Below, one piece after another: positions 2,608 through 30,470 of a stretch of 64,000 nucleotides of DNA (positions are counted from its first letter, which is position 1; each line of letters begins with the position of its first letter). The position numbers and the translations under genes were made by a program. The notes beneath the pieces are model-generated. The model searched no databases. It was given only the letters and a program-made list of their open reading frames with translations, and was not told the origin of the DNA. The stretch is from an uncultured Candidatus Altimarinota bacterium (GTDB lineage Bacteria; Patescibacteriota; Gracilibacteria; BD1-5; UBA6164), in assembly GCA_937999345.1 (NCBI GenBank), contig CALLBL010000005.1:8196-72195 (forward strand), written 5' to 3'.

Positions 2608-4104
2608 ATGAATAATATAAAATATTGGCAAGAAAAAATACAAGAAAAAAGAAAGCAAACTACTTTTCGAGATTTTATAATGGATATTGCGAGTTGGCAA
2701 CCAATAGTCTTTCATAAATCATCATGAATGGTATCGCGTTTTCCAGAAACTGATAGAATGAAAGAGGTTATTAAATACTCTGATTATTATAAACAGGATT
2801 CAACAGAATATCTCTATGGTATAGATTATGATGATTCAAAAAATATCTTTCAAAACTATGCTGATCTCAGAAAGCATGTGAAGGGAATTAATATGATTAA
2901 TTTTTTTAATAGCGAAAATAGCGAATATGCTGATGTTGTCAGTAAATGAAAAAATATTTATCTTTCAGCTTTTATAGTAAATGGGGATGAAGATGTAATG
3001 TATAGTTTTTGAGTAAACGACGAATCAAAGCGTATTTTAAATAGTGCTATTATCTCTGATCATAGCGAGAATGTATATTTTTCACTTGCAGTACAGCATT
3101 CATTTAAAGTTTTTTATTCGAGATATATCAATAATAGTTCTGATATATGGTTTTCAACCAATCTCCTTTGATGTACTCACTGTATAGCTTGTCATGATCT
3201 AGAAAATAAATCATATCATATAGAAAATGTGGAATACTCAAAAGATGAGTACATGAAAAAAAGAGATGAATATCTCCAAGATAAAAATCCATATCATGCT
3301 AGATATCTTTCTCTCGTGAGTAATGCTTGAAAACATCTAGCAAGCTCAAATATAACATGATCATACTGAGTAGAATCAGAGGATATAGAGTCAGCACATT
3401 TTACATATAGAATTTCAGGAGGAAAAAATGTATTTAACGTATGATGATTTGAATGATGCCAAAATATATATGATGTTTTTGATGGATGAGGTCCTTCTCT
3501 TCAAGATATATATGCTGTTAATGGTATAGCTATAAATTCTGAAAACTGTTATACGAGCTGTCATGTGCCAAATTGTAATACGGTTTTCTATAGCTATTAT
3601 CTCGAATCATGTTCATATTGTATCTGATGTATAGGACTTCAAAATAAATCCTATTGTATACTCAATAAACAATATACTAAAGAAGAGTGGGAGATATTAG
3701 CTCATAAGATATTTACTCAAATGGAGTCAGAATGAATTCTGTGAGAGTTTTTTCCATGAGAACTGAATCCATTTTACTTTAATGATACTATGGCTGGTAT
3801 TCTTGGTAACTTTACTCAAGATGAAGTAGAATCACAAGGATACATGTGGAGAGACCAAGAAATAAAAGTGGATATACCAGAGAATGCTGATGTAATATCT
3901 GTTGCTGATTTAAAGCATTATCAATCATATGATGACTGAAGGTGGAATATAAATCCAAGTATTCTGAAAAAAGTGATACAGGATGAAAAAGGAAATTATT
4001 ACAGAATCGTACATATGGAGTATGACTTTTTAATGAATTATTGACTCCCTCTTCCAGAGATTCATTGGCTTGATAGGATGAAGCTCAATTTATGAATTAA
4101 ATAA
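2608..4104 (+). CDS. Cys-rich hypothetical protein (repeated CxxC...N-K-S-Y-x-I motifs), 498 aa
   Basis: Frame verified across the whole span (about 24 in-frame TGA, no TAA/TAG). Repeats such as LGCTHCIACHDLENKSYHIENVEY and SCSYCIGCIGLQNKSYCILNKQY. No family recognised. Confidence 0.7.
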
Positions 4105-4110
4105 TTAAAA

Positions 4111-4136
4111 AAAGACCTCAAGCGAGGTCTTTTTTT
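4111..4136. terminator. Bidirectional intrinsic terminator between convergent genes
   Basis: AAAGACCTC-AAGC-GAGGTCTTT hairpin flanked by an A-run and a T-run. Confidence 0.7.
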
Positions 4137-4147
4137 ATATTAATTTT

Positions 4148-4498
4148 TTATGCCATAGCTGCTAATGCTTCAGCTTCAGTTTCTACAGTCGGAATAATAG
4201 TAGTGATACCAACGAGTTCAAGTACATCTTTTACTCCTTCGTCACAGTCACTGATATACATAACTCCATCATTATCTTCGATGTTTGAAAATACATCAGC
4301 TATGTAACCAATAGATTTTGAGTTGAGATATTTTAATCCTTTCAAGTTGAATAGGAGTTTTGTATCTGAGAAATCTCCTATTTGTTCATATACAGAAGTA
4401 AAAGTCTTATCTGCATTGGTTTCATCAAGTTCACCTGCAAATTCAAATACGACTACTGAACCTTCTTGTCTTTTTTGTATTTCTATTAACGTTTCCAT
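4148..4498 (-). CDS. STAS-domain protein (anti-sigma-factor antagonist, SpoIIAA-like)
   Basis: Intact 116-aa ORF without TGA. VVVFEFAGELDETNAD...LLFNLKGLKYLNSKSIGYI...DVLELVGI has the STAS/SpoIIAA layout. No partner kinase or anti-sigma gene nearby. Confidence 0.75.
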   Translation of the reverse strand: METLIEIQKRQEGSVVVFEFAGELDETNADKTFTSVYEQIGDFSDTKLLFNLKGLKYLNSKSIGYIADVFSNIEDNDGVMYISDCDEGVKDVLELVGITTIIPTVETEAEALAAMA

Positions 4499-4583
4499 GT
4501 ATTAAAGTTTTACTTAAATAATAGTTATGTGTATATTATATACCAAATAAATATTTTAAGCAAATTTTAGCCGAGTTTAAAAA

Positions 4584-5003
4584 ATGAGTATGAAAAAGAG
4601 ATATAATTTAGATCAAATACAAGATCTTGAGATTGATATAAAATTGCCAAGTATTGTGTTCTTGAAGTGAGGCTTATGAGCCGGAAAAACAACCCTTTCA
4701 CAGCATATTATCAGGGATATGTATAGTATTACTAGTGATATAACTTCTCCTACTTATACGTATTATAACAAGTATATATCAGAGAGGGGAGAGATATACC
4801 ATTTTGACCTATACAGGATTTCTGATTATGAAGAATTTATTTATATATGATGAGAAGAAATTCTCGATAATAATACTGGCCTGATACTGATTGAGTGGCC
4901 AGATATTCTCAAAGATACCTATGAAGCTGATATAACTATCGACATATCAATCACATGAAATGCAAATGAAAGAGAATTATCTATAACAAAAAGAGGAGAA
5001 TAA
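4584..5003 (+). CDS. tsaE: tRNA t6A biosynthesis ATPase TsaE (YjeE)
   Basis: VFLKGGLGAGKTTLSQ...SPTYTYYNKY...IYHFDLYRI...LILIEWPD are the TsaE signature motifs. The stop lies inside the hairpin AGAGGAGA-ATAAA-TCTCCTCT followed by a T-run. Confidence 0.85.
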
Positions 5004-5029
5004 ATCTCCTCTTTTTTATTTGATGATTA

Positions 5030-6541
5030 CTACTCTTCTTCGATACTCTTGATCACTTCCTTGAATCTCAGATACTCAGTGATTCTCAGTCACGTAAATC
5101 TTCACATGATAAAGTTAGCTGGAGCTAAAAGTATAATAATCTCAGGATATGCGAGTATAAATACTTGAACAAAACCAATAGTGAATATGAGATAAGCAAA
5201 TATAGCGATGATAAAAGTGTTTACGAGGTTATTTTTGTATTCTCTAAATTCTTTTGAAACTATCACATTTATAAGTCTCTCTGAAACAATAATAAAGAGT
5301 ATGATGTATATGGTATCGCTGAGGTTTACATCGAGGATAGAGTACTTAAATAGTAGATTCATAATAGCAGTAAATAAGACAATATTTATAACAATAATGA
5401 AACTAATTTTTGGTGTATATAAGAGTGTTTGCTTGCTAATAAGCTTACTAATACCAAGGTTTATAAACAGGAGAGAAGCCATAACAACCGTAGAAGCTAG
5501 TGCTCATACTTTGAAAAATAGTACTGAAAATAATACCGTAATGATAAGTCACATAGGAGAGATTCAAATCAAGTGCTTAAAGAAACTCACCAGTGTGAAT
5601 AAAAATGGCAAAAGAATCAATATATATATATCACTTGTGCTAAAACCTTTGTTTGAGAGATTATTAATAAACTTTGAAACAAACATAACTTCACTGACAT
5701 CATTTCCAGGTTCTATTTTGAGGAAATCATATCCATTATTTTGTAGTTCGCTTTCCAGCATGTTCGTACTAGCTGGGTTTTTAACGATTTGAAATTTGAT
5801 AGAATCGTTCATGATTACTACGTTTCATATCGAGTTTTTATTTGATACAAAGTTGTTGAGATAGTTTTTGAGTATATTCGTATTAAATCCTGATATCGCT
5901 ACTATATTGAGTTTTTTATCTGTAGCTATATTGAGCGTATTTATTTTAGAAAGCACTGAAAAAATGAATTCTTTTTCTCACCATATTCAAATATAATCAG
6001 AAGTCGATGAGCTATATCATTTATATTTTGAAAGCATTTCTGAAAAATCAGTATCAAGCAACTCTTTTTCTTTGTACACTCACATATTATGCATATATAC
6101 TCCTGATTGACCTGCTACTTCTATGAAATCGTCTATTTTTTGTTGATCTATTTTATCACTGAATATAAATGGAACACTAACATCATAAACAAAAGCATCT
6201 ATTTGAGAGCTTTGTATAAATCTCTTTTCCCCAGTCTCGTTTGAAAATATACTGAGATTTATTTCCTTTTTTCATGTTTTATCAAAACTCTTTTCAAATA
6301 CTTCTCCCGAGAAAGTTTCTTCTCATTCAGAGCTCCACTCTAAAACTATATTTTCCTCATCAAATGTATTTTTTACTTCGCTGAGATCTATTTTTAGCGT
6401 TTCTTCGAGGGAAATGTTTTTCTTGTATTCAAATATATTTTCATTAATAACCAGGTTATCAGCTGATACGCTTTGCGTCATCAGCATGATACAGATAGCG
6501 AGTATACAAGTATATATTTTTTTCAGTACTGAACTTTTCAT
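5030..6541 (-). CDS. Secreted-domain plus multi-pass membrane protein (possibly the 7TM domain type that is usually fused to an inactive transglutaminase)
   Basis: Signal peptide MKSSVLKKIYTCILAICIMLMTQSVSA, then a ~300-aa external region, then about 7 hydrophobic helices and C-terminal GRFTGLRITEYLRFKEV. No TAA/TAG found between 5033 and 6541 in frame. The family guess rests only on my memory of the C-terminal motif. Confidence 0.6.
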
Positions 6542-6543
6542 AA

Positions 6544-8013
6544 TTATCTTCTTTTTAGGGTAGTAAATGTTTTTAGTATTATCTTTATATCGAGTATAAG
6601 ACTCCAATTTTCTATGTAGAATATATCTAGTTTTGCTTCTTTCACAAAATTATTTTCAGCCCTTCAGTTTACTTGAGCCATTCCAGTGATTCCTGGTTTG
6701 ATAGTAAGAAGTCTTTTTTGATAGAGTTCATATTTTTTTACTTCTCTGGGTTGGTGTGGTCTTGGCCCAACGAGACTCATCTGGCCAAGTAATACATTGA
6801 AAAACTGTGGAAGTTCATCGATGGAGTACTTTTCTATATAGGTTCAGATTTTTGTTTTACGTGGATCATTTTTGATTTTATAAAGTGGTCCATCTCTTGC
6901 GTCATTTTCCTTGATGAGTTTTTGTTCATACTTCAGTGCTGGATCTTTTTTATTTTCTATTCAGTAGGCTTCTTTTATACAGTATTCCCATTTGAGATAT
7001 CGAAACTTATAGAGAAAAAAGCTCGTTCAGTTTTGTCCTATTCTTGTATTTTTATATATGATTGGAGCTCTTGGATCTTCTAGCTTGGTTATGATGGCTA
7101 TGATAATCATAAGTGGGCCAAATATAATAATTCATAATAGGCTTCAGACGATATCTGCAGCTCTTTTAATGACTCTTCACCAGTTATCCAGAGGGGTGTT
7201 TTTTATTTCTATTACTGGGATATTATTGATAAGCGACATAGTAGTGTTGGCAGCTGTTACGTCAAAGACATTGGTTACATATCTATATCTGATGCCAAAT
7301 ATCTTACTGAGATTCCAGATTCCAAGTAGCTCTTTTTTTGTAAAATCACTATCTATATGAAGGATTTCGTCACATTTTCAGTTTTGTATGAGTTTTTCTG
7401 TCTTTTCTATTCATCAGAGGTATTTTACCTTGTTTTTGAGATTTTTTGTATTTACATATCAAGTTATTTCATATATGCCAGAGTTTTTGATATCTTCTAA
7501 AAAAGGAATGAGTTTTTTAGAGTCTTTATTACTAATAAGCAGGAGTTTTCTTTTTGGTATGATGTTTTTTGTGAGCATATACCTTTGTACATTATTGAGA
7601 AAAATCCTTTCAAGGATAACTCCAAGCGTAGCAAATATAAACGTAAAAAATATAATAAGTCTTGGTATTTCAACTCAGGTATAAATAATACCATTTCAGA
7701 GGTAGACTCAGACAGCAAAGAATAAAAACCAATATATACCATACCTAATGATATCAAGAAATTCTTTTACTTTAGAGTGAATTATTTTGATATTATAGAG
7801 TCAGTGGGTAGAAAATAAAAATACATACAAAAGAGCTCATAAAAGAGCAAAATAAACTAGATTTTCAACTTCTATCGTTTGTATAGGAAGGTTTATTCAA
7901 GGTATGAGGTCTGTGATGAGCCTGAGTTTACGAGCAAGAAAAAAACACAAAAATACTATCGCAAAGTCCAAAGGAACTTTTACAGCACTGAAAAGTATCT
8001 CGTGTTTTTTCAT
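6544..8013 (-). CDS. Polyprenyl-phosphate sugar-phosphate transferase (bacterial sugar transferase, WbaP/exopolysaccharide priming type)
   Basis: C-terminal [27 protein letters not shown]...[46 protein letters not shown]-terminal TM helices. Its TAA lies 2 nt before the next ATG. Confidence 0.9.
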
Positions 8014-8147
8014 AGGTTATTTTGCCTCTCAGCTCTAGGTTTTTATATTACTATACAGTATTTTAACATTTTTTTTTTAATTGCAAATACATCCTTTTTT
8101 TATATTATTTAAAACGATAAAAACTATTTATATTTTCTCTTATATTT

Positions 8148-9311
8148 ATGAAAAATATTTGCGTACGCTTCTTGCATTTGCTTAAAAATATTGGTACTGA
8201 TGTGCTATTTCTTTATAAAAATTTCTTCCATTGGAATATATCTAAATTCCTTATTTTGATAGCCTCTTTTGTAGTCGGATTATTATTATCACTACCATTT
8301 TTTATCTTGCTTCTCATCCTTGCACTTATAGATCCTATAGAGTGGTCAAAAGTAATGTTTTCAGATATTAATATATATATGAGTATAGCTCAGTATATTG
8401 CTATACATCCTTTTTATCTACTTGCAGAATTCATTCTTTTTGTGATTTGAGTTGCTCTTTTATTTTTATGAATGAGCTATCATATTATATTGGAATCAAA
8501 TCTTTATCTTCATTATTTTAAAAAAGAAAAACTTCCTGTTAAGAAAAACTTCTATTTTGATGCATCAAAGATATATACATATTTTGGCATCTTGTCTTGG
8601 CTACTCGCATATTTGATGCTACCTATTTTAGTTTTACTCTGAGTTTTTATTGTACTTTTTATTGGATTTAAGTTTTTCTTCTTACCTGAGATTCTCCTTT
8701 CTGTTATATTATTTATAGCTCTTGCTATATGTGCCGTTTGGTTTTTATACCTTTCGTACAGAATTAGTTTCGCTTACTTAGTATTTGTAGATCAAGTCGA
8801 TGAAAATGAACCTCAAAAATCTAGATCATACGTACAAAAATCTCTCGCTCTCACTTCATGAAAAGTATTTTTTAAATTCTTTAGTATTATTATTATATTT
8901 ACGATTTTGCTCGCACCAATAAATCTAATAGGAGCAAATATGGAAAATAATATTAATGAAATAAGAAATTATTTCTGATATAAATCTGGGCAAGTACAGA
9001 TAGTAGATGAATCTGATCAATTTGAGTATGAATATTTAAGATGACTCTTTTCTGAAAAAACTGATGATGAGCTTATCTCTGATTTACAAACGCTCTATTT
9101 CCAGCAGGTTGTCTATACACTATTATTCTTTTTGCTATGTAGTTGAGTACTTACTATGATTATGACTTCTTTTTACAAGCGTGCTCTCGTGATGCAATGG
9201 TCAAAAGTGAAAAAAGAAGATAAAAAAGAAAAGAAGAATGAAAAATTAAAAAATATAAAAGAAGAGAAGAGTACAAAAAAGAAAGACAAAACTGACAAAA
9301 AAAAGAAATAA
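8148..9311 (+). CDS. Multi-pass membrane protein with lysine-rich C-terminal tail
   Basis: 387-aa table-25 ORF with several long hydrophobic segments. Tail is KVKKEDKKEKKNEKLKNIKEEKSTKKKDKTDKKKK. Confidence 0.65.
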
Positions 9312-9329
9312 TTTATTAAAAATATACAC

Positions 9330-10130
9330 GTGAAAATACTTGCCTTTGGCGACGTATACTGAAGAGTATGAAGAAAAGCCCTCAAAAAAGAACTCCCAGG
9401 ATTACAGGAAAAATACAATCCTGATTTTATTATAGTGAATGTAGATAATATCACTTCATGAAGATGAGCTGTAGACCACCATGTCGAAGAGCTCAATGCT
9501 ATATGAGTCGATATCATGACGGGAGGGGATCATATATATGATAATTTTTCTCATATAAAGTCATACCTCCAATCAGATAATACCAACCTACTAGTACCAG
9601 CCAATACCTATGAAACTGATACAGGTATCTGATTTAAAGTCTTTGAAAAAAACTGAAAAAGACTTCTGGTTATACACTTGATGTGAAATGTCTTTGTGAG
9701 AGATAATCTTTATAATCCATTTCTCAAAGCAGATGAGATACTCGCGCTTGACCATGGTCATCTCGATGGAATCGTGGTTGATTTTCACAAAGAAGCTACT
9801 TCTGAGATATATGGTCTTGCTATGTATCTAGATGGAAGAATAAGTAGTATATTTTGAACACATACACACGTACAGACCAATGATGAACAAATCCTGCCGA
9901 AATGAACCGGGATGATGTGTGATATCGGTATGGTATGACCTCTTTACACTGTTATTGGGGCTACATTTGATTCAGTGAAAAACAGATTTTTAACTGGTAT
10001 CAATAAATGAAAAATAGAACAAGGTCTTTGAAAAGATTATGTACTTGGGTGAATGTATACAGAAATAGATCCATCGACTATGAAGTCTACTCATATAGAG
10101 AAAATAAGAATTCAGTGAACTACCATATAA
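9330..10130 (+). CDS. YmdB-family metallophosphoesterase (2',3'-cyclic-nucleotide phosphodiesterase-like)
   Basis: GTG start. VKILAFGDVYGRVGRKAL...PDFIIVNVDNITSGRG...IMTGGDHIYD...VDFHKEATSE...[29 protein letters not shown] matches the YmdB calcineurin-like pattern. Confidence 0.85.
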
Positions 10131-10145
10131 ATAAAAACAAATACT

Positions 10146-11393
10146 ATGTATAACGATTATAAAAAAAAGCAAAGATGATTCTCTCTCACAGAGATTATTT
10201 TAGTAGTTTCTATACTCATGATACTTGGTTCTATAGCTATATCAGCTTATAGTGTACACACGAGAACTGCTAGAGACGCGAGCAGAATCAAACAATCCCA
10301 AGAAGTAGCAGATGCTTTTGATATATATGCAGTATCAAAAAAGCTCCCTCAACCTGAAGATGCTGTTGATGTCTTGGTAAATGGTACACTCGTGTGATAT
10401 CAGTGATACGCTTCTGAGGAAATACTGGCAAGACTGAATTTTTTTAATGGTGGACTTGATCCTCTTGATAGAAACTATAAAAATAGAAGAAAGAAAAATC
10501 CTTATACATACTACCTTACAAAAGACTTAAAAAATGCTCAACTCTTGGTCTTTTTAGAGGATAGTAGTAATATAATATCATTTCTTCCAGAGGCTCATGC
10601 AGCTGATTATTCAAATAGAATACCAAAAGTTTCTGGGAAAAAGCTAGGAGTCCTTACTCACAATACTCTCAATACCCCAATTCAAGAAATAGATACTATC
10701 AGGGCTGCAGGAGAACTGGATATAGGTATAACTACCAATTTTTATACAGCTCATATCTCTGATGATAGAAAAATAACTGGAAATTTTAACCAGCTCGCAG
10801 CATCGACTCCTTTTGCAAGTTGTAGGAGAATAGCAGAATCATGAAAGAGATCAGGATGAAATAAAATGTATAGGATAAATCCCGATGGGAATGAATATAT
10901 AGACGTGTATTGTGATATGGATATAGCCAATGGATGATGGATGCTCATCGGTTCTAAGTCATCTGCGTGAGACCAAGAGAAGTGAAATCTCTGAACTGTT
11001 CGTGTTACAGAGGGGAGTAATGCAAATGTAAGTATTCCAAACGATCAAATATTGAATTGATTTACTGAAGCTATGGCATGTTCTTCTGAAAATTGTTGGA
11101 AATGGGATATGTCCGATGTATTTCGTGAATGTATTCGTAGTAATTGCTATACCCCTGAAAGTGATATAAATAATCTTGTGAGAGTAAAGTGAACGAGTTG
11201 ATTTTCTCTCTGAACTACTGATACAATCAAATATAATGATGCATCAAGTTTAGAATATATGTTTTCTCTCTACAATACTGGAACTTCTTTCTCATCACCA
11301 GCTCTATGAGCGTGGAGTGATAGAGTAGACGCTGACTGAGATGGAACATGATCATGGTGAGTCAGGGATCAGTGGCATTTATATATAAGATAA
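10146..11393 (+). CDS. Type IV pilin-like protein fused to a fibrinogen-related (YCDM...GGW) C-terminal domain
   Basis: Class III signal KKQRG/FSLTEIILVVSILMILGSIAISAY (Gly -1, Glu +5). C-terminal CRRIAESGKRSGGNKMYRINPDGNEYIDVYCDMDIANGGWMLIG. Start, internal ORF 10545 and stop are all in one frame. Confidence 0.75.
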
Positions 11394-11398
11394 TAACT

Positions 11399-11773
11399 AT
11401 GAAAAAAAAATTTCTCATCTTCGTACTCTTTGCGATATTTGTCTTGAGTTTTGTGACTTTTTTGATGATTATAAACTATCTGGATCCCTATGAAAATAAA
11501 GTGATAGCAATAATATCTATGGCTATTGCATTTTTCTTTTCTATGATGAGTGTATCTACACTTTTTTTATACGCATTTAAAAAAATCTACTTCAGATGAC
11601 AGGTATATCTCCATCATCTCATGACGAGTTTTAGACAGGGGGTCATGATTGCGATATTTTGATTATGACTCGGTATATTTTCGTCTATAGGAGCTCCTAT
11701 TTTTGTCTCTTGATTCTTGTTATTTATTATTTTGATTTGTATTGAGCTTTTTATAAAAAACATGGAAGCATAG
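11399..11773 (+). CDS. Small membrane protein (124 aa, about 4 TM)
   Basis: MKKKFLIFVLFAIFVLSFVTFLMII... Hydrophobic throughout. Follows the pilin gene after 5 nt. Confidence 0.6.
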
Positions 11774-11779
11774 TCAATC

Positions 11780-13870
11780 ATGAAATTATTGATTTTCCTT
11801 TCAAGAATCTTATTCTTGGTCTATTACAGAACTATTTTACGAACCTATCTGATGAACAAAAAAACTTTATACCTTACAGCTTCTTTCTTGCTTATTTTTT
11901 GCTCTGCAAATGTATTTGCTCTTTCAACGAGTCAAAAATGACAAATCATAAAGAATTTTGAAAGACTTCAGTATGAAATGATTTTTGAGAGTGATGGAGT
12001 ATTTTTAACTGATAGTGATAGACAAATACTCTCGACTTCAAGAAAGATAAACATATACAGCAGCATAGGTTCAAAGATACAATCAAAAACTGAATATCTA
12101 CAAAAGCAGAGTGAAAAAGTAGTAGATAGAATAGAGTCACTCGAATCAGCTATCGAATGAATAGATGAGAATATAGAGAATATTGTAAAAGAAATTAATA
12201 GGATTAATGCCGAAGTAGTTGAAACCAAATCATCTATAGAGATTAATAAGAAAAAAATCAGTATTCTCAGGAACAAGATCATTCAAAATAGAAATGTCCT
12301 TCTCGAATACATGACGCATCTCTACAAAAAGTGATGATATGTATATGATGAAAATACAAGTGTCGATAATCTCAGGACGATTTTATTGTCATGAGAAGAT
12401 ATGTCATGAGTGATAAATGATATACACTTTAAGTCATTGATACAAATCAGTGGAAAATCTCTCATAGATAAGCATAGAGGATATATCTCAGAGCTTTATA
12501 TCAAAAAAACAGCTCTCGAAAAAGAAGAGCTCAAACTCAAGCAGCTCAGAAAATCATGAGTAATAGAAAAGAAAGTGCTCAATGACAATAAAGAGTTCAA
12601 GGAAAGACTGCTCAATGTAACAAAATGACAAGAAGAGCTTTACCAAAAGTACATCAGTGAAAATCTAGAAAAGCAACAAGAACTCAAAGTAAAAGAACTC
12701 CAAGAGAGAATTAAGTTTAACAATGCAAGAGAATCTCTTCTCGATAGATATAATTGTGATTTTGTAGATGTATCAAGAGAAAAAGAAAAAGCAAAAACGC
12801 TAACTGAGCAGTGTCTCGAACTTAACAAGATTGTATACGCTGAATCGAGACTCAGTTGATTTGGTGACACAAAAAATATCCTTGCTTGGCCAGTTCCTCC
12901 ATTTGGATGAGTAACGGCATATTATCGTGACCAAGGATATACAGATACGTTTTGATCAGCGCATAACGCTATAGATGTCGCAGTTCCTCAATGAACGGAC
13001 ATACTTGCACCAGCTGATGGATACGTCATATTTATTCAACCACCAGTGACAGCTTCTGGATACGCGTATATAGCACTGAAGCATGCATGAGAGCTCGTGA
13101 CTGTACATGGTCATGTGAGTGAAGTCATGGTATGAAAAAATGATTTTGTAAAAAAATGAGAGCCATTTGCAAAGTCAGGTTGATGATATGGGACTCCATG
13201 AGCTTGAGTACTCTCTACATGACCTCACTTGCATATGGAAGTATTTAAGGACAAAGAGTATGAAGACCCATTTAAGTTTCTTGATCTCTCTTATCTTCCA
13301 TTTTCCACTCTACCAGAAAAATATAGGTTTAAATTTTTAGCTGATTTCAAGGAGAGAAAATGATATACATATGAAAAAGGAGAACCAGATGAGAAATCGA
13401 GATGATGAAAAGTATTTAAAATAGAGTGAAATACTGAAGTAGAAAGACAAAAGAACTTTCTCGAAACATATGCAGCTCCTGAGTTTAAAAGCTGGGATTT
13501 ATGGGTAGAGGAAGCTATCGATGGTCAAATTGATCCAACATTTCTGATGTGTCTTGGATTGGCTGAGAGTGGTTTATGAAGAAATCTAAAGACATCATAC
13601 AATGTATGAAATGTTTGAAATACAGATTCTGGATGAACTTACGACTTTCCAAATGCTAGAAGTGGTATTTTCTGGATTACTAAAACACTCAATAATAGGA
13701 TTCTTGGCTGATATACCAAGATAGAAGAGCTGAGTAGATATGGGAATAAAACTGGTTCTATATATGCATCTAGTCCGGATCATTGGCATAACAATATCGT
13801 AAAATGTATGTCCCACGTAAAATGAGAATACGTACCAGATGATTATAATTTTAGAATTACAGAATTATAA
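11780..13870 (+). CDS. Coiled-coil M23 (LytM/EnvC-like) peptidase with extra C-terminal domain
   Basis: WPVPPFGGVTAYYRD...AHNAIDVAVPQGTDILAPADGYV...HGHVSEV...GGGYGTPGAGVLSTGPHLHMEV. Long heptad-like N-region. The alternative start 11852 (MNKKTLYLTASFLLIFCSANVFA) gives a cleaner signal peptide. Confidence 0.85.
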
Positions 13871-20005: not shown

Positions 20006-20079
20006 GGTGCCTTGGTAGAGTGGTTATACACGGGTCTGCAACACCCTTCACAGCGGTTCGAACCCGCTAGGCACCTCCA
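20006..20079 (+). tRNA. tRNA-Cys (anticodon GCA), CCA encoded
   Basis: Acceptor GGTGCCT/AGGCACC, T-arm AGCGG-TTCGAAC-CCGCT, anticodon loop CTGCAAC, discriminator T plus CCA, 74 nt. The weak D-stem is typical of tRNA-Cys. Confidence 0.85.
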
Positions 20080-21401: not shown

Positions 21402-22046
21402 TTATTGAGATTCACTTAAAATCTTAACTAAAAGCCACATATGAAATAATCTTTCTCAATCTCCACAAATATTATTTTTAAATAGTATTTCTGCCTCAGA
21501 GACTTTGAAGTCAGCTTTTTCCAGCTCAGCAATCTTTTTAAGGACATCCGATTGATAATATTGGCCATTTCTGTATATTTCTCAATTAACCAATCTTTCT
21601 CAGGCATTATATGCATTGATGATAGCTTGTTTTTCTAATTCATTAAGTTTTCTTCAAAGGCAATCAATTGATTCGGCTTTTAACAATCTATTTTCATTAT
21701 CTAGAGAAGAATCTAATATATCTAGAATAGCCTTTGAGATATCGACATCTTCTGATTTCTCATTTAGATATTTTTTTGCTATATCATCAAGTATGAAAAT
21801 GGATTTTAATATATTTCCTTTATTTTCTCAGGTAGCTGTCGATAACAAATTAATTATGTCTTCAATAAAATCATCAAATTTAGGCTCATATTTTCTATAG
21901 TGAGCTACATCAATCTGAAATTTATCATTATTTCAACGATATAATTCATTTAAGAATGCATCTTTCCAATATTCTTTTTTTTCATTCTGACTTAATTCAT
22001 GATAACTAGCTCATTTTTCTGAGATAGTATTCTTTATATGTTTCAT
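21402..22046 (-). CDS. Hypothetical protein D2 (214 aa), last gene of the operon; its C-terminus shares a ~50-aa module with the 837-aa protein
   Basis: Every codon mapped. C-terminal KQAIINAYNAGERLVNG...SDVLKKIAELEKADFKVSEAEILFKNNICG. Confidence 0.65.
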
Positions 22047-22053
22047 AATTGTT

Positions 22054-22446
22054 TTATTCTGAGAGTATGTTATTTGTCTTTTTTGCTCATTTTTCTATCT
22101 CATCTATAGTATCGGAATATATTCTATTTATAATAGATTCATTTTTTATGATGAATGTATTATTTTTATAGTTTTTTATTATATCTGCATCTTTTAATCT
22201 TGCTCATGCCCTTAATGATTTATGATCATAGATTCATACCCAAGTATCAAAATTAAAATTTTCTTCTGATAATTCTTTAACTTCATGAACCTCCATATGT
22301 GTTCATTTATTTTTAAATATCTCAAAAATAAATTTACCATCGCTAGTTATACATACATCTAAAATTTCACTATAGTTTAAGAATATATGAAATCAATTAT
22401 TTAATGATTCCTTTAGTGATTCAGATATTTTATTAATTTCTACCAT
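22054..22446 (-). CDS. Hypothetical protein D1 (130 aa)
   Basis: Every codon mapped. ATG lies 1 nt after the stop of the HD gene. Ends TAA 22054-22056, just past an A6 tract. Confidence 0.6.
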
Positions 22447-22447
22447 T

Positions 22448-23263
22448 TTATTTTGAAAGTATATCTCAAATTTTAGCTGTGTTCTCATTTCTTTTGTTTT
22501 GAGCTTCTTTAAAGTCTCTTACTTTTTTAAGATCTTTGATTCTCGATTCTTGTACTTCTGAAATCTCATTAGTTTTTAGATAATCAATCACATTTACTAT
22601 TTCTTTCGCTATTACAGGGTATTTATCTTCTATTAATGGAATAACTTGTGATAATGTTCTATCAAAATATCAATTTTTCCATTCTGTATCTTCAGTAAAC
22701 ATTGTACTGTATATATTTGCCAATCTGTCTACAGACTTTACTAGAAGTGCAGAATCAGAGTTCCTTATCGTTGTATAATAATCTTCTTCTTCTATTACTT
22801 TTCAATCCACAGAGAAAGATACAAGTTTTACTATTTCAGCAACTTCTTCTCAAAATTTTAGTACTAATTCATTATAAGATGTATTTGTGTCTTCAAGGAT
22901 ATCGTGTAATAATGTTGCTAAAAATTCTTTTAAACTTCATCAACTCTGAGCACAATATATTGCAGCCATCATTGGGTGGTAGTGATATTCTGTATTTTCA
23001 TCCCTATATTGTCATTTATGCTTATTTTCTATAAAATTAAGTACTTCATATATTACTTCTTTATTGTTTGGAAAAGAAGCATCTACCATTTTCATAAAAC
23101 GTTTAGATATCTCAGATTGATCTAAATAAATATTTATTTCTGATTCTATAGAATTAGATATCTTTTGTGTATTATACCAAGATGGAGTATCTGAAATTTC
23201 TGTGCTTTTTAAACCTTTGGTAAAGTCTTCAACTGAGAATGGTTGTCTAGGCGTTATATTCAT
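22448..23263 (-). CDS. HD-domain phosphohydrolase of the RelA/SpoT (Mesh1/small alarmone hydrolase) type with an 80-aa N-terminal extension
   Basis: NKHKGQYRDENTEYHYHPMMAAIY...LATLLHDILEDTNTSYNELVLKFGEEVAEIVKLVS matches H-x-GQ-x-R...Y..HP...LLHD..EDT...FG..VA..V. Frame scanned and found intact. Confidence 0.8.
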
Positions 23264-23270
23264 AATATTA

Positions 23271-25784
23271 TTATTTAAGTAATGCTTCTTGAAGTTTTAA
23301 TAGTCTTTCTATTTCCTCATTTTTACCTCCTTCAATTATAAGTGTTTCCTGTTTTTTTTCAATTATATTTTTTACTATTATTGATAATTCTCAAGAGTCA
23401 AGATTTTCAGGTGTTTTATTTATTTCTTCTATTCATACAATTCTAGCTTCTCAGATCCCTCTTGAATTATCTACATAATTTATATTGGGTACATCTCTAG
23501 AGTTTAATTCATTCATTACATTTCTTACTTTTTTATATGTTTCTTTATAATATGAAACTCATACTGGCCTCCCAGTTTCTATTGCTCTTTTTACTATAGA
23601 TTCCCGTGCTTGTATAGGATCTCTATGTATCATATCAATATCTATATTGTGAATATTTGCTTTATTCGCCTCATTTTGTAAGTAGTCAATAAATCTTATA
23701 TCACTTAGTGGTGAATCAAATGTTATATCTGCTTGTCTATTTCGTGAATTTTCTACTACTTTTCCAGCTGAAGATTTTCATGATCCTGGTGCACCTCATA
23801 TTAATCTAATTCTAGAATTTATATCTCATTCTATTCCAAGTAGGAGTAATCTATAATGTATTTTGCTTAATTTTTGTACTATTTCATCAAATTCAGAACT
23901 ATTGAATCACTTATATTTTATAAAAATTTCTCTAAATGCATCGGGATCAATAACCTTTCAATTTTTAGCTGTATATATTGAAAATAATTCTTTTAATAAT
24001 TTATTTCAAGATACTAATTTTAAGACTTCCTCATGGCTTATAGATTCTTTAATAATAAATCATTTATCTTTATCAAAAATTTTAACAAATCATGGTATCT
24101 GTTCTAATTTGTCTATTGAAAGATCTAACTCAAGTATTCTTGATTTTATAGTTTCCGAACCACAAATATTATTATCAAGAAGCTTTCTAATATCTGTATT
24201 ATCAAATCCTCCTTGTTTCAGCGTTTTTACTTTCTTAGAGATATCCGAGATTGGATACAAACCATCCTCTCATCTCTCTCAGATCCTATGAGCCTTTATA
24301 ATTGCTTTTTTCTCTACGTCTTTTAGGTCTCTTCATAGATTTAATACACTTACAGCCTTATCTAATCGATCTATATCATCAGCTGAGAAGTCTAAGTTTT
24401 TCGTTTCTTCTACTTTCCCAAACAACATCTCCTTTATCTTCTTCACAGTATCTGGGCCTATCCCCATCTTTTCTCACATATCAGCAAAGCTTTTCATCAG
24501 AACACTTGGTTTTATTCTTCCAATTGCTTTTCAAACTTTTCAGAGTTTTCCAGCCTTTACTAAGCCTTGTACTCAAAATGCAGTAGCTCATAAACTTATT
24601 AGTCATATTAACCATTCAGCTGGAAACTCTTCCATATGAAACTCTTTTGGTACTATTCCTGATGCTTTCAATCATTTCATCACTCCATCCTGATTGGTGA
24701 GAGTACTTGTTAAATCTGCTGGCACACTCGTCACTGCTCCTGCATAAGGAATGAGTTGAGAAAGAACCGTTATGAGATATGCTACCATAGCATCTGATTG
24801 TATAGCTTGATCTGCTTCGCTGAGCATAGTTATCTCACGAATAGTAGATATATCTCATCCCATAGCTTCAAATCTTTTCATATGTCATCCCATATTTACT
24901 TGGAGGGTATCTATTTGAGCCATGCCATTGAAACCAAGCTCATCAAATTCTCAGCTCTTTGTATCTACTGGTGCATTAAACATTTCTTGAGCCTCAGATA
25001 TATTTCTCCCAAGCATACCTCTCACTATATTTTGTCTTTCTTCTATTGTTACGGTTCTTGAAGGTATCATATCTGAAGCAGGAAGCTCATATTCTTCAAA
25101 TTCCATACTCGCTATAGTATTTTCTATAAATACTTCTCTACTTTCTGCTTTGCTATACTCTTGAAGCATAAAGGCACTTGGAAGTATCTTATTGTTTATT
25201 TCTCAGAGATTATCTTGGATTTTTACATTGAGTATCCACCTCTGACCTGCTATATCTTCAGGATTGTTTTTCTTAATTTTCTGTACTATGTCTCAAATTT
25301 TTGAGATACGTATTCAGATAGAGGCTATTATTTTATTTTTTATTTCAGGCTGCAGCTCTGCTAAATCATTCTCTATATAATCCTTGTATCCACTTAGATA
25401 CTGAGAAATATCTAAGTTCAAACCATCAGTTGTTAGTTCTTCGTGAATAGAAACCAAATCATTGATTCAAAAATATTCTCATAGTGCTCATAGTGACTGA
25501 ATTTTCTCTCAGGCTTGTTCCATTATCTGTGGAAGATTCATACTTTGCATTTGAGAAACAAGAGCTTCTCAGATTTGTGATTGTTTTAGGTGTAGCGCGC
25601 TCGCAAATAAGGGATTAGATGAGGCTAAACTTGATACTATATCACGAGTTTGTTCTAAGTTTCCATCCTCAGCTATAGCATCTATACTTTCCATATCTCA
25701 CTTCAATAAAGCCTCAGAATGTATTGCTTGTACTTCTGGACTTATGCTTGGTCATTCGAAATATTCCGTGTTAGCTTGTTCCAT
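23271..25784 (-). CDS. 837-aa protein: unknown helical N-region, hydrophobic hairpin, C-terminal Zeta-toxin-like P-loop kinase domain
   Basis: Whole frame scanned: no TAA/TAG. Walker A RLIGGAPGSGKSSAGKVV (nt 23769-23798), then ADITFDSPLSD and NIDIDMIHRD. Hydrophobic AMVAYLITVLSQLIPYAGAV and EWLIGLISLGATAFGVQGLV. ATG overlaps the upstream TAA (TAATG). Confidence 0.75.
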
Positions 25785-26095
25785 TATATGATGCTTTGTA
25801 ATAAATTTTCTAACTCTTTTTCTTTGCTTATTGATTCACTTTTTTCTAATTGTCTTTCTTTTTTCATTCTATACTTTACATATTCTTGTTTGATATATGA
25901 AGGCTCTATATTATCTCTTTTTCTTTCTTCTTTTAAAAACTCTAAGAGTATCTTATTTTCTGCCGATATCAGCTCTGAGATAACTCCTAACTGTTTCTCT
26001 GATAGTTTTTCAAAATGCATTAAAATTTCCTGTTTCATATGTTCAGGAATTATTAATGTATCTTGTATTTGCTTATAGAGAAAGTTAGTATCCAT
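25784..26095 (-). CDS. Small helical protein A (103 aa), first gene of the operon
   Basis: Intact standard ORF ending in TAA. Charged, coiled-coil-like (KQEYVKYRMKKERQLEKSESISKEKELENL). Confidence 0.7.
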   Translation of the reverse strand: MDTNFLYKQIQDTLIIPEHMKQEILMHFEKLSEKQLGVISELISAENKILLEFLKEERKRDNIEPSYIKQEYVKYRMKKERQLEKSESISKEKELENLLQSII

Positions 26096-26129
26096 ATTTC
26101 GGCTTTAGAGTTATATTTACTCTATGAAA

Positions 26130-26158
26130 ATAATAGCATATTTTTTTATTTAAAGCAA
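26130..26158 (-). promoter_or_regulatory. Candidate promoter of the five-gene operon
   Basis: On the minus strand: TTGCTT (26158-26153), 17 nt, TATTAT (26135-26130), about 35 nt upstream of ATG 26095. Confidence 0.35.
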
Positions 26159-27246: not shown

Positions 27247-27777
27247 TTACATATTCTCTCTATATTCCATGTGAAGCTTTCAAAGAATATTTCTTCACTG
27301 CCTTGCGTCATGGCTAATTCAAAAAAACTCATCTCACCAATAGGTGAATTCTATAATCTCTCTATCTCAGGTGCTTCTTAGCATATCTTGCCTCCAAGAA
27401 CTATTATCATATTTCTTCTGTATAGTTTCTCTCATAAATTCTATTCTGTTTTCATCATTTATATTCATGATGCTTTTGTATTTGTATGCAACTTTTTTAG
27501 AGGTGTTTTTTATTTTTGAGGCTGCAGCTATTTCTTTTTTTATTTCTAAATCATCAAATCGAAGAGACATATAGTATCATTCACTATCCTCATATATATT
27601 TCCATGTCCATCTTGTATGGGATATTTAAGATGACTAAAGTTTGAACCACGCTCAAAAGCATCATAAAATTCTCAGCGAGTAATTTTGTATCTTTCTAAT
27701 ATTTGAGGATGTATGATGAGATACGCTTCCTGTATTCTTTTTGGAGTATATATTTCTAGTGGGTAGTTTGATAGCAT
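27247..27777 (-). CDS. Hypothetical protein (176 aa)
   Basis: Table-25 ORF starting 12 nt downstream of the desaturase stop. No motif recognised. Confidence 0.55.
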
Positions 27778-28725: not shown

Positions 28726-29595
28726 ATGGTTCTCAGAGTTCCTCAAGATAATGGTCATGAATATACTGATTACAAAGATGCTATTGATAATATTAACCAG
28801 CACCTTTTATATATACAAGAAAATCACGAACCTCAATTAAACTGGTCTATTTATGGTTCTTTTCTTCATAATAGATTACGTCCTGGATTGAGTGATATAT
28901 ATGTATATTTATTACACGATAGTGATAGAGATGATTTCCCATTAGATATAGTATCATCTTGCCTAGATATAAAAACAAGTTTAGAAGATATTTGAATTCC
29001 TATAAAGATGCATCATACAACTACATGACAATTGAGTGAAAATTATTTTTCTTATTCTGATTATGCTATGGAGATAGTAAGATGAATACAAAGTCCGTAT
29101 TGTTCTCAGGATTTCAAGGTTTTATTTTCACACATTGAGAATATGCAAAAGAGTAATAAGGATATGATGAATGCTTATGTAGAAGATATAAAAACTCTTT
29201 TAGCTTTTTTACCAAAAACAAAAGAATTATCATCTATTCCAAAAAATAAAATTAATCCTCAAGAACAAGGAGAATTGGTAGAAATCTGGAGTATTTTTAG
29301 AAAAATGATTTCTATTTGTGCACTTGCTATAGAGCTAGATGATACTATACATATAGATGAATCTGCTTTTAGTAAGCCATATAGATGGGTAATCCAATGT
29401 TTTGCTTCAGAGTTTGATCCACATTGTACTGAAAATCTTATACAATATTATTTGAGAACAATTATTGGCATTAGAAATATGGATGATTGGTATCGTTTCT
29501 TATCTAATTGATGAGTAAGAAAAATAGAAAAACTTTATGAGAAGGTATTTATACCATTTTTAAATGCTATAGATAATAAATTTACAATAAAATAA
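28726..29595 (+). CDS. Pol-beta-superfamily nucleotidyltransferase-like protein, catalytic motif degenerate (paralogue 1)
   Basis: IYGSFLHNRLRPGLSDIYVYLL: G-S present, but DxD is replaced by DIY. Frame verified. Shares N- and C-terminal blocks with the next gene. Confidence 0.65.
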
Positions 29596-29597
29596 TT

Positions 29598-30470
29598 ATG
29601 CCATTAATAGTTCCAACATTACAAGACTACGATGAAGCAGAACAAAAGATTATTGAGTTTTTTTGAGATGTAGAATTTTTCAGGAGAGTAAATCAGAAAG
29701 TAGACTATATTATATATGGTTCATATTCAACTGATAAAGTAAGACCATGACTGAGTGATATAGATATGATGATACTCGCTCATACTGATGATTTAGTTTT
29801 TCCTTTTGATGTTTGAACAGCTTTTGCTTGGACGAAATGAGAAATAGAACAATTGGGTATACCTTTGCAGGTCAATATGTGTACTACTGGATTATTGAAT
29901 AGTCAACATTTTTCACCTGATTATGAATATCTTATGGAAGTGAAAAAATGAATAGAGAGATGAAAAACTTCGTCTAATAACATATGAAAATATTTTAAAA
30001 ATCATCGAGATAGTGATATAGATGATATGCATATGGTAAGATACTTTCTCAGAAAGGTAAATTCTCTTTATCAGGATTTCCGCAATATAGATCATTTAAT
30101 AATGAGATATAGTAAAGAAGACCTTAATAGGGAGCAGCAAAAAAAAGTTTGGCACGCATGGGATAATTTTAAAAAGATGATGTCAATTATTACTGTTGTA
30201 TTAAGAATCCAGAATAAAGAATCTTTGTTTTCAGAGACAGATGCTCATATAATGGAAAAATTTTCTCAAAATTTTGACCAAGATATAGATATGTCTGAAT
30301 ATGTTGTCATACTAGAATCTATTCAAGACATATGAGATTGGTATGATTTTTTACAGAGTAGTAAAGACGATGGTTTTAGAAGAATTATAGATTTATATAA
30401 AAATACTTTCACTCCGATGATAAATACTATTGATAAAAAATTATTGCTTCCAACTGATTCCAACATATAA
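29598..30470 (+). CDS. Pol-beta-superfamily nucleotidyltransferase domain protein (paralogue 2, motif intact)
   Basis: IYGSYSTDKVRPGLSDIDMMIL (GS...DxD). Frame verified. ATG lies 2 nt after the previous stop. Confidence 0.7.

Follow-up and report, generated by a model that had tools for sequence, protein, structure and literature searches.

Zeta toxins form a classic toxin family, and every antidote described for them is, to our knowledge, a binding protein. The antidotes of epsilon/zeta, PezAT, and AvrRxo1-Arc1 neutralise by binding, and the characterised members of the family (zeta, PezT, ng_zeta1, and AvrRxo1) are toxins or effectors. In the ng_epsilon1/ng_zeta1 toxin-antitoxin (TA) system of Neisseria gonorrhoeae (6EPG/6EPH/6EPI), the toxin monophosphorylates UDP-sugars, acting on UDP-N-acetylmuramic acid (UDP-MurNAc) and UDP-N-acetylglucosamine (UDP-GlcNAc) and blocking cell-wall synthesis, and a small protein that covers its ATP site serves as the antidote (PMC5923241). 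A Zeta-fold kinase also serves as a delivered effector in AvrRxo1-Arc1 (4Z8T; PMC5087710, PMC5491322), where AvrRxo1 is delivered by a type III secretion system, phosphorylates the 3'-OH of NAD, and has a binding protein as its antidote. Single-domain SpoT-type HD enzymes, the small alarmone hydrolases (SAHs), neutralise toxic RelA/SpoT synthetases and stand beside such nucleotide-modifying toxins in type IV TA pairs with toxic small alarmone synthetases (toxSASs), such as FaRel-ATfaRel (PMC7229694), and with exported alarmone synthetases (PMC12691689). In polymorphic toxin systems (PMC3482391), including MuF and the LXG toxins of the type VII secretion system with their small helical partner genes, a conserved N-terminus, a junction, and a variable toxin are accompanied by immunity and orphan genes and by a coupled upstream partner. 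Here, we analysed a locus of five genes (A, B, C, D1, and D2) in a 64,000-nucleotide stretch of contig CALLBL010000005.1 from an uncultured Candidatus Altimarinota bacterium (hereafter, the window), in which gene B ends in a Zeta-family kinase and gene C, directly downstream, is predicted to encode a SpoT/Mesh1-type HD phosphohydrolase. We proposed, at a probability of roughly 0.6, that this is a polymorphic toxin-immunity locus of a bacterium that uses genetic code 25 (TGA read as glycine), that B bears an exchangeable Zeta warhead, and that C is the cognate immunity protein, most likely hydrolysing the phosphate that B installs.

The 2012 survey of polymorphic toxins (Zhang et al., PMC3482391) contains neither a Zeta kinase warhead nor an HD-hydrolase immunity protein. 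Papers that mention zeta toxins, polymorphic toxins, and immunity together do exist; our literature searches turned up none in which a Zeta toxin is paired with either a small alarmone hydrolase or an HD phosphohydrolase, and such toxins go unmentioned in the two genome papers on the candidate phyla radiation (Gracilibacteria and Vampirococcus) that we consulted.

The C-Terminus of B Is a Zeta-Family Kinase

The C-terminal part of B (residues 563-837) matched the Pfam family Zeta_toxin (PF06414) with 28.5 bits against a cut-off of 22.3, and the same family was matched by all four code-25 orthologues (best E = 2.6e-14). An exhaustive search of 1.84 billion representatives added approximately 36 further relatives of the domain; Zeta_toxin was recognised in 34 of the 35 C-terminal relatives that were scanned, two of the 35 being code-25 orthologues. 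Pairwise searches and a four-sequence profile gave no PDB match for this region, and a word-indexed homologue search with the C-terminus alone gave no matches at all; only the profile of 28 relatives reached the N. gonorrhoeae Zeta_1 toxin (6EPH/6EPG, E = 4.6e-23), over nearly the entire kinase domain, with PezT at E = 0.023. The alignment of these 28 relatives also yielded an AlphaFold2 model with a predicted local distance difference test score (pLDDT) of 90.4 and a predicted template modelling score (pTM) of 0.85. The query for this model was the database version of the C-terminus, which carries Trp at 12 glycine positions, and the model was confident nonetheless; an earlier single-sequence model of the same W-substituted version was unusable (pLDDT 41.6) and was not fold-searched. 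The best Foldseek match of the model in the PDB was again ng_zeta1 (6EPH, E = 2.6e-9, template modelling score 0.58), followed by epsilon/zeta (3Q8X/1GVN, ~4e-4), AvrRxo1 (4Z8T, 2e-3), and PezT (2P5T, 6e-3), so that AvrRxo1 is a weaker structural match than ng_zeta1. With Pfam, the 6EPH profile, and the fold search in agreement, the Zeta-like tail that had first been noticed by eye is now assigned to the Zeta-family kinases of the Neisseria ng_zeta1 subclass.

The residues that matter in ng_zeta1 were then compared through the family-profile alignment to 6EPH, with their roles taken from PMC5923241. D615 of B corresponds to the catalytic base Asp56, K670 to the P-loop lysine Lys115, R733 and R739 to Arg175 and Arg181 of the phosphate-binding patch, and R618, as a conservative replacement, to Lys59, whose role is to read the carboxyethyl group of MurNAc. 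None of the five varies within the B family, and K670, D615, R733, and R739 are invariant in 28 relatives. The motifs GGAPGSGKS, TFDSPL, and HRDP, which were quoted when the locus was first annotated, are all present. B shares with ng_zeta1 the "rewired" order, in which the catalytic Asp lies N-terminal to the P-loop. However, ng_zeta1 is a stand-alone TA toxin that has an oligonucleotide/oligosaccharide-binding (OB) domain at its C-terminus, whereas the kinase of B is the tip of an 837-residue modular protein, has no OB domain, and precedes the gene of an HD hydrolase. The same Zeta subclass was observed in polyvalent proteins of phages and conjugative elements (with LPD38 and ART-PolyVal), in one PAAR-like DUF4280 protein, and in large phage proteins, with fold matches in uncultured Caudovirales proteins at E values down to 5.8e-13; unlike that of B, the Zeta domains of polyvalent proteins are internal to very large multi-enzyme proteins.

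Gene C: A Predicted SpoT/Mesh1-Type HD Hydrolase

The HD signature noted earlier in C was confirmed. C matched Pfam HD_4 with 37 bits (cut-off 27.2) and TIGR00691 (spoT_relA) at E = 5.9e-17, and its PDB matches were the RelA hydrolase, MESH1, and SAHs at E values of 1e-8 to 1e-3 (5XNX, 1.2e-8; 3NR1, 2.9e-8); across its 271 residues, Pfam gave no match to the RelA_SpoT synthetase domain. The catalytic motifs R..H(P), HD, ED, and DRxxN are all present. In 11 relatives with 22-53% identity, H96, H120-D121, E124-D125, D179-R180, and N183 are invariant, and R87 is invariant or nearly so. C is thus a member of the SpoT/Mesh1-type HD hydrolases and retains an intact active site, and from the invariance of the catalytic residues across the 11 relatives we concluded that this site is under selection. 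Outside the HD core, C has a conserved N-terminal extension of ~70 residues, which is family-specific, and a helical C-terminal tail. We rejected the possibility that C is a housekeeping SAH found here by chance, because it adjoins Zeta C-termini in all five lineages described below and has no second copy or relative in the window.

C resembles the antitoxins of the toxSAS-SAH pairs in being a single-domain SpoT-type HD protein beside a predicted nucleotide-modifying toxin, and the toxSAS-SAH arrangement itself occurs on a B-type scaffold at one related locus, L012, in which an HD gene comes directly after a RelA_SpoT C-terminus. The toxin in the window is, however, a P-loop Zeta kinase and not a RelA/SpoT-homologue synthetase, and a 3'-pyrophosphate product is not to be assumed. 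The initial annotation had suggested that B pyrophosphorylates its target; nothing that we observed indicates this, and the nearest characterised relative, ng_zeta1, transfers a single phosphate to UDP-sugars.

Small HD hydrolases were also encountered beside other genes. On a phage-like standard-code contig (L017, 5414-6507; L018, 1719-2812), a PTS_2-RNA/Tpt1 gene is directly followed by a 168-residue SpoT-type HD protein (P0016); an RNA 2'-phosphotransferase is thus another unusual partner of a small HD hydrolase. At the standard-code locus L014 (1710-3715; also L015 and L016), a 361-residue protein precedes a 300-residue HD_4 protein (P0014). The segment GYKGIHLNF...EIELQVHS of the former looks RelA/SpoT-like by eye and had no match in Pfam; these genes are possibly a toxSAS-SAH pair.

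Exchange of the Kinase-Hydrolase Cassette across Related Loci

In an index of 5.8 billion proteins, full-length B had four homologues only. One of them (P0001) is the same protein, and the other three are alike for the first ~475-540 residues and unrelated thereafter; the N-terminal scaffold (residues 1-463) showed 72-83% protein identity in P0002-P0004 before divergence set in. DNA comparison gave the same picture: from 26161 through A and into B, the window shares 81-83% identity with L001-L003, and the identity then ends abruptly, at 24361 (L002), 24262 (L001), and 24160 (L003), in or beside a short "pre-toxin" module (table 1). The gene that follows changes together with the C-terminus. 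In the window and in L004 and L019, the Zeta kinase is followed by C and then by D1 and D2; in L001 and L003, an ABC1/APH-like kinase is followed by a 173-residue protein and a membrane protein; and in L002, a third, unassigned type of C-terminus is followed by a 337-residue HD protein and a 170-residue copy of the 173-residue protein. A RelA/SpoT synthetase seen by eye in the C-terminus of P0004 was dropped after Pfam gave E = 0.069 and BLAST found no similarity to the genuine domain of L012, and this C-terminus is left unassigned.

The converse comparison, starting from C, showed that its homologues (46-57% identity) each have a Zeta-type C-terminus directly upstream. The Zeta/HD unit recurs in five lineages, on N-terminal scaffolds of at least three unrelated kinds: besides the window, it is carried in L008 by a B-type scaffold with 31% identity over the full length and its own A-like gene, in L005 by an unrelated 922-residue protein, and in L007 by a third N-terminus, and it also occurs in L020, where the contig holds only the 3' fragment of the toxin gene. 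In these loci, the HD proteins share 49-54% identity with C. Thus, the Zeta C-terminus and C are adjacent in every independent lineage found, as the initial annotation had expected of co-conserved partners, and the pair behaves as one cassette. In L012, the B-type scaffold carries a RelA_SpoT domain (Pfam, 1.1e-10), followed directly by a distant HD protein (~25% identity) and then by a C-like HD protein. The latter is an orphan without a Zeta gene nearby, and the 170-residue copy of the kinase-type immunity gene in L002 is a second orphan. A 77-residue HD remnant in L005 is of the same type as the more distant HD protein of L012. As a weaker orphan case, a 167-residue protein in L020 resembles the kinase-type immunity proteins over its C-terminal ~40 residues only. 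The N-terminus is conserved, a module marks the junction, the C-terminal enzymes are exchangeable, the downstream gene co-varies with them, and orphan copies of such genes exist; in this combination we recognised the pattern of a polymorphic toxin system, and the locus, first described as fitting no known system, shows all the comparative-genomic features of this type except an identifiable export route. What distinguishes it from the described polymorphic toxins is that its scaffold holds no described trafficking domain and that its host uses genetic code 25. We regard these proteins as a family of polymorphic toxins in recoded bacteria, one of whose cassettes joins a Zeta kinase to an HD hydrolase.

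The Zeta/HD locus is rare and patchy in its distribution. Searches for related loci in genome and viral collections found nothing, probably because tblastn reads the glycine codon TGA as a stop, and a degenerate DNA pattern recovered only the known contig from the genome collection and one chance match (57% GC) from the metagenome collection.

The surroundings of several related loci were also recorded. In L003, the toxin locus adjoins a SMODS/AGS_C and SAVED gene pair (3778-5603, minus strand) that resembles a cyclic-oligonucleotide-based antiphage signalling system (CBASS), and in L001 it adjoins genes for an AAA_13 ATPase, a primase, a helix-turn-helix protein, and a resolvase (4127-12920); both loci sit in variable or mobile islands. 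In the vicinity of L008, there are Mrr_cat and Rep genes. In L005, two genes past the Zeta/HD pair and after the HD remnant, a 547-residue protein (9170-10813, plus strand) had no Pfam match; its C-terminus, GESRGNYNAVYGD...IGKYQF, is lysozyme- or transglycosylase-like by eye only.

Scaffold, Junction Module, and Accessory Genes

The N-terminal scaffold of B had no match in Pfam, NCBIfam, PHROGs, or the PDB, a search of the PDB with a scaffold profile included, and no signal peptide was recognised by eye. The initial annotation had placed it in no recognised family, which remains true of Pfam; it is nevertheless a recurrent family, since the exhaustive search returned many more scaffold-sharing representatives. 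We examined 46 of these, most of which have a Trp content that betrays TGA recoding. Their C-termini include RelA_SpoT, Pkinase, PP2C, DnaJ, FHA, and ABC1 domains, most being unannotated, and among the standard-code scaffold relatives Pfam recognised no trafficking domain. Two moderately hydrophobic helices of the scaffold, which may serve membrane association, lie in a stretch (residues ~305-475) that standard-code proteins also match. At 837 residues, B does not merit the description "giant" that it had been given.

The pre-toxin module is helical, belongs to no Pfam family, and has the consensus LGRxLxxxEKxAIxxAHxxGE...G.Y....K..iL..aGF...e.r.L...GIcG. One copy is present in B, one in D2, and several in P0113, an 809-residue standard-code protein.

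An A-like gene stands ahead of every B-type scaffold; its identity to A is 73-76% in L001-L003 and 25% in L008, and in L004 it is represented by a truncated call. A itself had no family or PDB match, even with a profile search of the PDB, and nothing meaningful in PHROGs. A thus travels with the N-terminal scaffold and not with the Zeta/HD pair, and because of this strict linkage and its translational coupling to B, we proposed that A may be a chaperone or adaptor of the scaffold. The locus is accordingly not an epsilon/zeta (PezAT-type) TA system: it lacks an antitoxin of the epsilon type, its upstream gene follows the scaffold rather than the Zeta domain, and the conserved partner of the Zeta domain is the downstream HD enzyme.

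Apart from the window, D1 and D2 turned up only in L004 and L019, which carry near-identical copies of the locus, and for this reason we did not regard them as core genes. D1 had no homologue in L005, L007, L008, L012, or L020 and no family match in the library scans, and is either an orphan gene or an accessory specific to the strain. D2 combines a unique N-terminal half with one pre-toxin module, stops 19 residues after NNICG, shows 45-47% identity to B-type proteins in the module only, had nothing meaningful in PHROGs, and does not accompany the Zeta/HD pair in other lineages; it may have been left behind by a displaced toxin cassette or an earlier exchange, or it may be an accessory protein. 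With D1 and D2 confined to near-identical copies and A bound to the scaffold, the five genes do not form the functional unit first supposed.

Gene Cluster, Genetic Code, and Flanking Signals

Under table 11, the region shows only short fragments, and open reading frame (ORF) calling is useless there. In a six-frame scan, the summed length of ORFs of at least 100 residues was 0.23 times that of the window under table 11 and 1.52 times under table 25/4, with shadow frames counted, and long ORFs were seen only when TGA was read as sense. Under table 25/4, the five tightly packed minus-strand ORFs were recovered exactly as first listed, including the overlap of the ATG of B with the TAA of A as TAATG, and with gaps of 7 nucleotides between B and C, 1 between C and D1, and 7 between D1 and D2 (table 1).

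Table 1.— Features of the toxin-immunity locus in the window, in the order of transcription
Feature	Position	Strand	Residues	Description
Promoter-like site TTGCTT-17-TATTAT	26158-26130	minus		TG upstream of the -10 element; read from sequence
Gene A	26095-25784	minus	103 aa	charged protein; no in-frame TGA; translationally coupled to B; candidate chaperone or adaptor of the B scaffold
Gene B	25784-23271	minus	837 aa	35 in-frame TGA
Conserved scaffold of B	24396..25784	minus	aa 1-463	presumed trafficking or presentation domain
Two moderately hydrophobic helices of B	24552..24806	minus	aa 327-356 and 387-411	Kyte-Doolittle 19-residue windows 1.4-1.66
Pre-toxin module of B	24156..24395	minus	aa 464-543 (~70-80 aa)	LGRxLxxxEKxAIxxAH..GE..G.Y....K...L..GF.....LL.NNICG
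Zeta-family (ng_zeta1-class) P-loop kinase of B	23274..24098	minus	aa 563-837	Pfam, family profile, AlphaFold2 and Foldseek
Walker A GGAPGSGKS	23772..23798	minus		two glycines are TGA codons
Gene C	23263-22448	minus	271 aa	7 TGA; single-domain SpoT/Mesh1-type HD phosphohydrolase by Pfam, TIGR00691, and PDB; predicted immunity partner
Gene D1	22446-22054	minus	130 aa	alternative ATG at 22488 gives 144 aa, overlapping C
Gene D2	22046-21402	minus	214 aa	
Pre-toxin module of D2	21462-21674		aa 125-195	
Terminator-like hairpin with T-run	21388-21365	minus		10-bp stem; found by scan; closes the gene cluster

In codon-aware alignments with homologues, TGA columns stood opposite Gly 36 times and opposite Trp 0 times, and the invariant glycines of Walker A are encoded by TGA in some loci and by GGN in others. 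For these reasons, we assigned the organism to code 25, a code already known in Gracilibacteria and Absconditabacteria. In public collections, the code-25 genes (P0001-P0013 and most scaffold relatives) are stored with each TGA translated as Trp, which brings their Trp content to 3-7.5%; this mistranslation corrupts motifs, so that the P-loop reads GSWKS, and lowers search sensitivity, and it probably helped hide the family.

The strong hairpin that had been seen at the end of the cluster was also found by our scan. The promoter-like site fared less clearly: DNA homology with L001-L003 starts at ~26160, beside the -35-like hexamer, and both hexamers are present and largely conserved in four loci, but in a scan such sites were indistinguishable from chance in this AT-rich DNA (41 sites versus 32.6 +/- 5.9 in shuffles). 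The 5' leader of gene A (26096-26130, minus strand) is almost identical in the window and L001-L003 and contains a small inverted repeat, AGAGT-N7-ACTCT, which may be a regulatory element.

Other features of the window were noted in passing. A gene for a NADAR-domain protein (Pfam, 1.8e-14; 27247-27777, minus strand) lies ~1.2 kb upstream, and no connection with the toxin genes was established; domains of this type have been linked to NAD/ADP-ribose metabolism and to the reversal of ADP-ribosylation. Two tandem paralogous genes of ~290 residues follow (28726-29595 and 29598-30470, plus strand), the second with a weak match to a nucleotidyltransferase family (NTP_transf_2). An ORF at 10146-11393 (plus strand) starts with MYNDYKKKQRGFSLTEIILVVSILMILGSIAISA, a type IV pilin- or pseudopilin-like prepilin N-terminus as read by eye from the code-25 translation only. 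A tRNA-Cys(GCA) gene (20006-20079, plus strand), 1.3 kb from the end of the locus, is the sole tRNA and the sole Rfam match in the 64 kb.

Discussion

The organisation described above suggests how the locus might work. In the mechanism that we infer, B would be an exported toxin composed of the conserved scaffold, the pre-toxin module as a recombination joint, and the exchangeable C-terminal warhead. By homology, the kinase would use the gamma-phosphate of ATP to phosphorylate a hydroxyl on a metabolite containing a nucleotide diphosphate, the nearest homology pointing to a UDP-sugar cell-wall precursor. Peptidoglycan synthesis is present in Gracilibacteria and Vampirococcus, and a producer would therefore need self-protection. 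C would provide it as the cognate immunity protein, removing the phosphate installed by B much as small alarmone hydrolases neutralise toxic RelA/SpoT synthetases; its conserved N-terminal extension might also bind B. A would act as a scaffold-specific partner, a chaperone or adaptor. We favoured enzymatic removal of the phosphate by C because the scaffold family also pairs an HD protein with a RelA_SpoT warhead and because the active site of C is invariant.

Several observations weigh against this proposal. SpoT/Mesh1-type HD enzymes are known to act on ribose 2'/3' (pyro)phosphates and not on hexose 4'-phosphates, the products of ng_zeta1, so that the two chemistries fit poorly. Asn75 of ng_zeta1, which together with Lys59 reads the carboxyethyl group of UDP-MurNAc (PMC5923241), is not conserved in B, where a serine (629) takes its place. 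Neither a trafficking domain, nor a signal peptide by eye, nor secretion genes were found, the last among ten scanned neighbours of the locus, which include RecF-like, NADAR, desaturase, and LexA genes. Two related loci adjoin defence genes (CBASS in L003 and AAA_13 in L001). Finally, the evidence is computational throughout, all loci are metagenomic, and only five independent lineages with the Zeta/HD pair were found, in part because the reading of TGA as Gly defeats standard searches. With regard to the chemistry, either C has shifted in specificity or this Zeta subclass has a ribose-directed substrate, as AvrRxo1 has; a ribose phosphate of the kind that AvrRxo1 places on NAD is plausibly removable by SpoT/Mesh1-type enzymes. 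It is tempting, if rather speculative, to extend the second option. The Zeta subclass might phosphorylate the ribose of a nucleotide (NAD, an NTP, or a tRNA end) and create an alarmone-like poison instead of modified UDP-sugars, the SpoT-type hydrolases might then be the first enzymatic Zeta antidotes, and the scaffold and A might form a route, not recognised before, by which predatory or episymbiotic code-25 bacteria deliver effectors.

The way in which C protects bears on the most serious alternative. C could act stoichiometrically, by binding B and blocking its ATP or substrate site, and keep its hydrolase site for another use, for example cross-protection against RelA/SpoT warheads. The antidote of ng_zeta1 and those of all characterised Zeta-family members are binding inhibitors, C has its conserved, family-specific extension and a helical tail outside the HD core, and the same scaffold also bears RelA_SpoT warheads with HD partners. 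On the other hand, the retention of every catalytic residue across relatives 22-53% identical weighs against binding alone, and a cross-protective role sits badly with the repeated linkage of the C family to Zeta C-termini and with L012, where the RelA_SpoT warhead directly precedes the distant HD protein and the C-like protein comes behind. We thus regarded protection by binding as possible, though doubtful.

An intracellular role is a second alternative. The locus might be an anti-phage or abortive-infection module resembling type IV TA systems, in which the N-terminus of B is a sensor, its C-terminus a swappable effector, and C an enzymatic antitoxin, with no export involved. A conserved sensor joined to a variable effector is a common layout of defence systems, toxSAS-SAH pairs do act in phage defence, neither a secretion signal nor secretion machinery was found, and the contexts of L003 (SMODS/SAVED), L001 (AAA_13, primase, and resolvase), and L008 (Mrr_cat and Rep) would suit such a role. 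The PADLOC models, however, gave no meaningful match for any protein, the sole one being a spurious type I specificity subunit match of 15.5 bits. Moreover, polymorphic toxin loci typically have orphan immunity genes and remnants downstream, as seen here, relatives of the scaffold bear effector-like Pkinase, PP2C, DnaJ, and FHA domains, the same Zeta subclass is used in delivered PAAR-like proteins and in polyvalent proteins, and the scaffold has a coupled small partner gene and hydrophobic helices. Defence without export therefore appears unlikely to us. That B and C are a non-toxic kinase/phosphatase pair of nucleotide or cell-wall-precursor metabolism or signalling, their adjacency reflecting the futile or regulatory cycle that such enzymes could form in principle, is very improbable, because the kinase sits at an exchangeable tip, each alternative tip has its own partner gene, the locus is rare and patchy, and characterised Zeta-family members are toxins or effectors.

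Taken together, these comparisons lead us back to a polymorphic toxin-immunity locus with a Zeta warhead and a cognate HD hydrolase. The locus hints at an enzymatic antidote of a type that has not been described for Zeta toxins: a conserved, intact SpoT/Mesh1-type partner predicts that Zeta kinases may be neutralised in a new way, by erasing the modification that they make. The HD partner also indicates, through its chemistry, what the substrate of this Zeta subclass might be, and the subclass is found in phage polyvalent proteins and secreted effectors as well. More broadly, bacteria of the Gracilibacteria/Absconditabacteria type have a family of modular proteins whose enzymatic tips are interchangeable, and these proteins are candidate weapons or host-manipulation effectors of uncultured, recoded bacteria that are thought to live on or prey on other bacteria.

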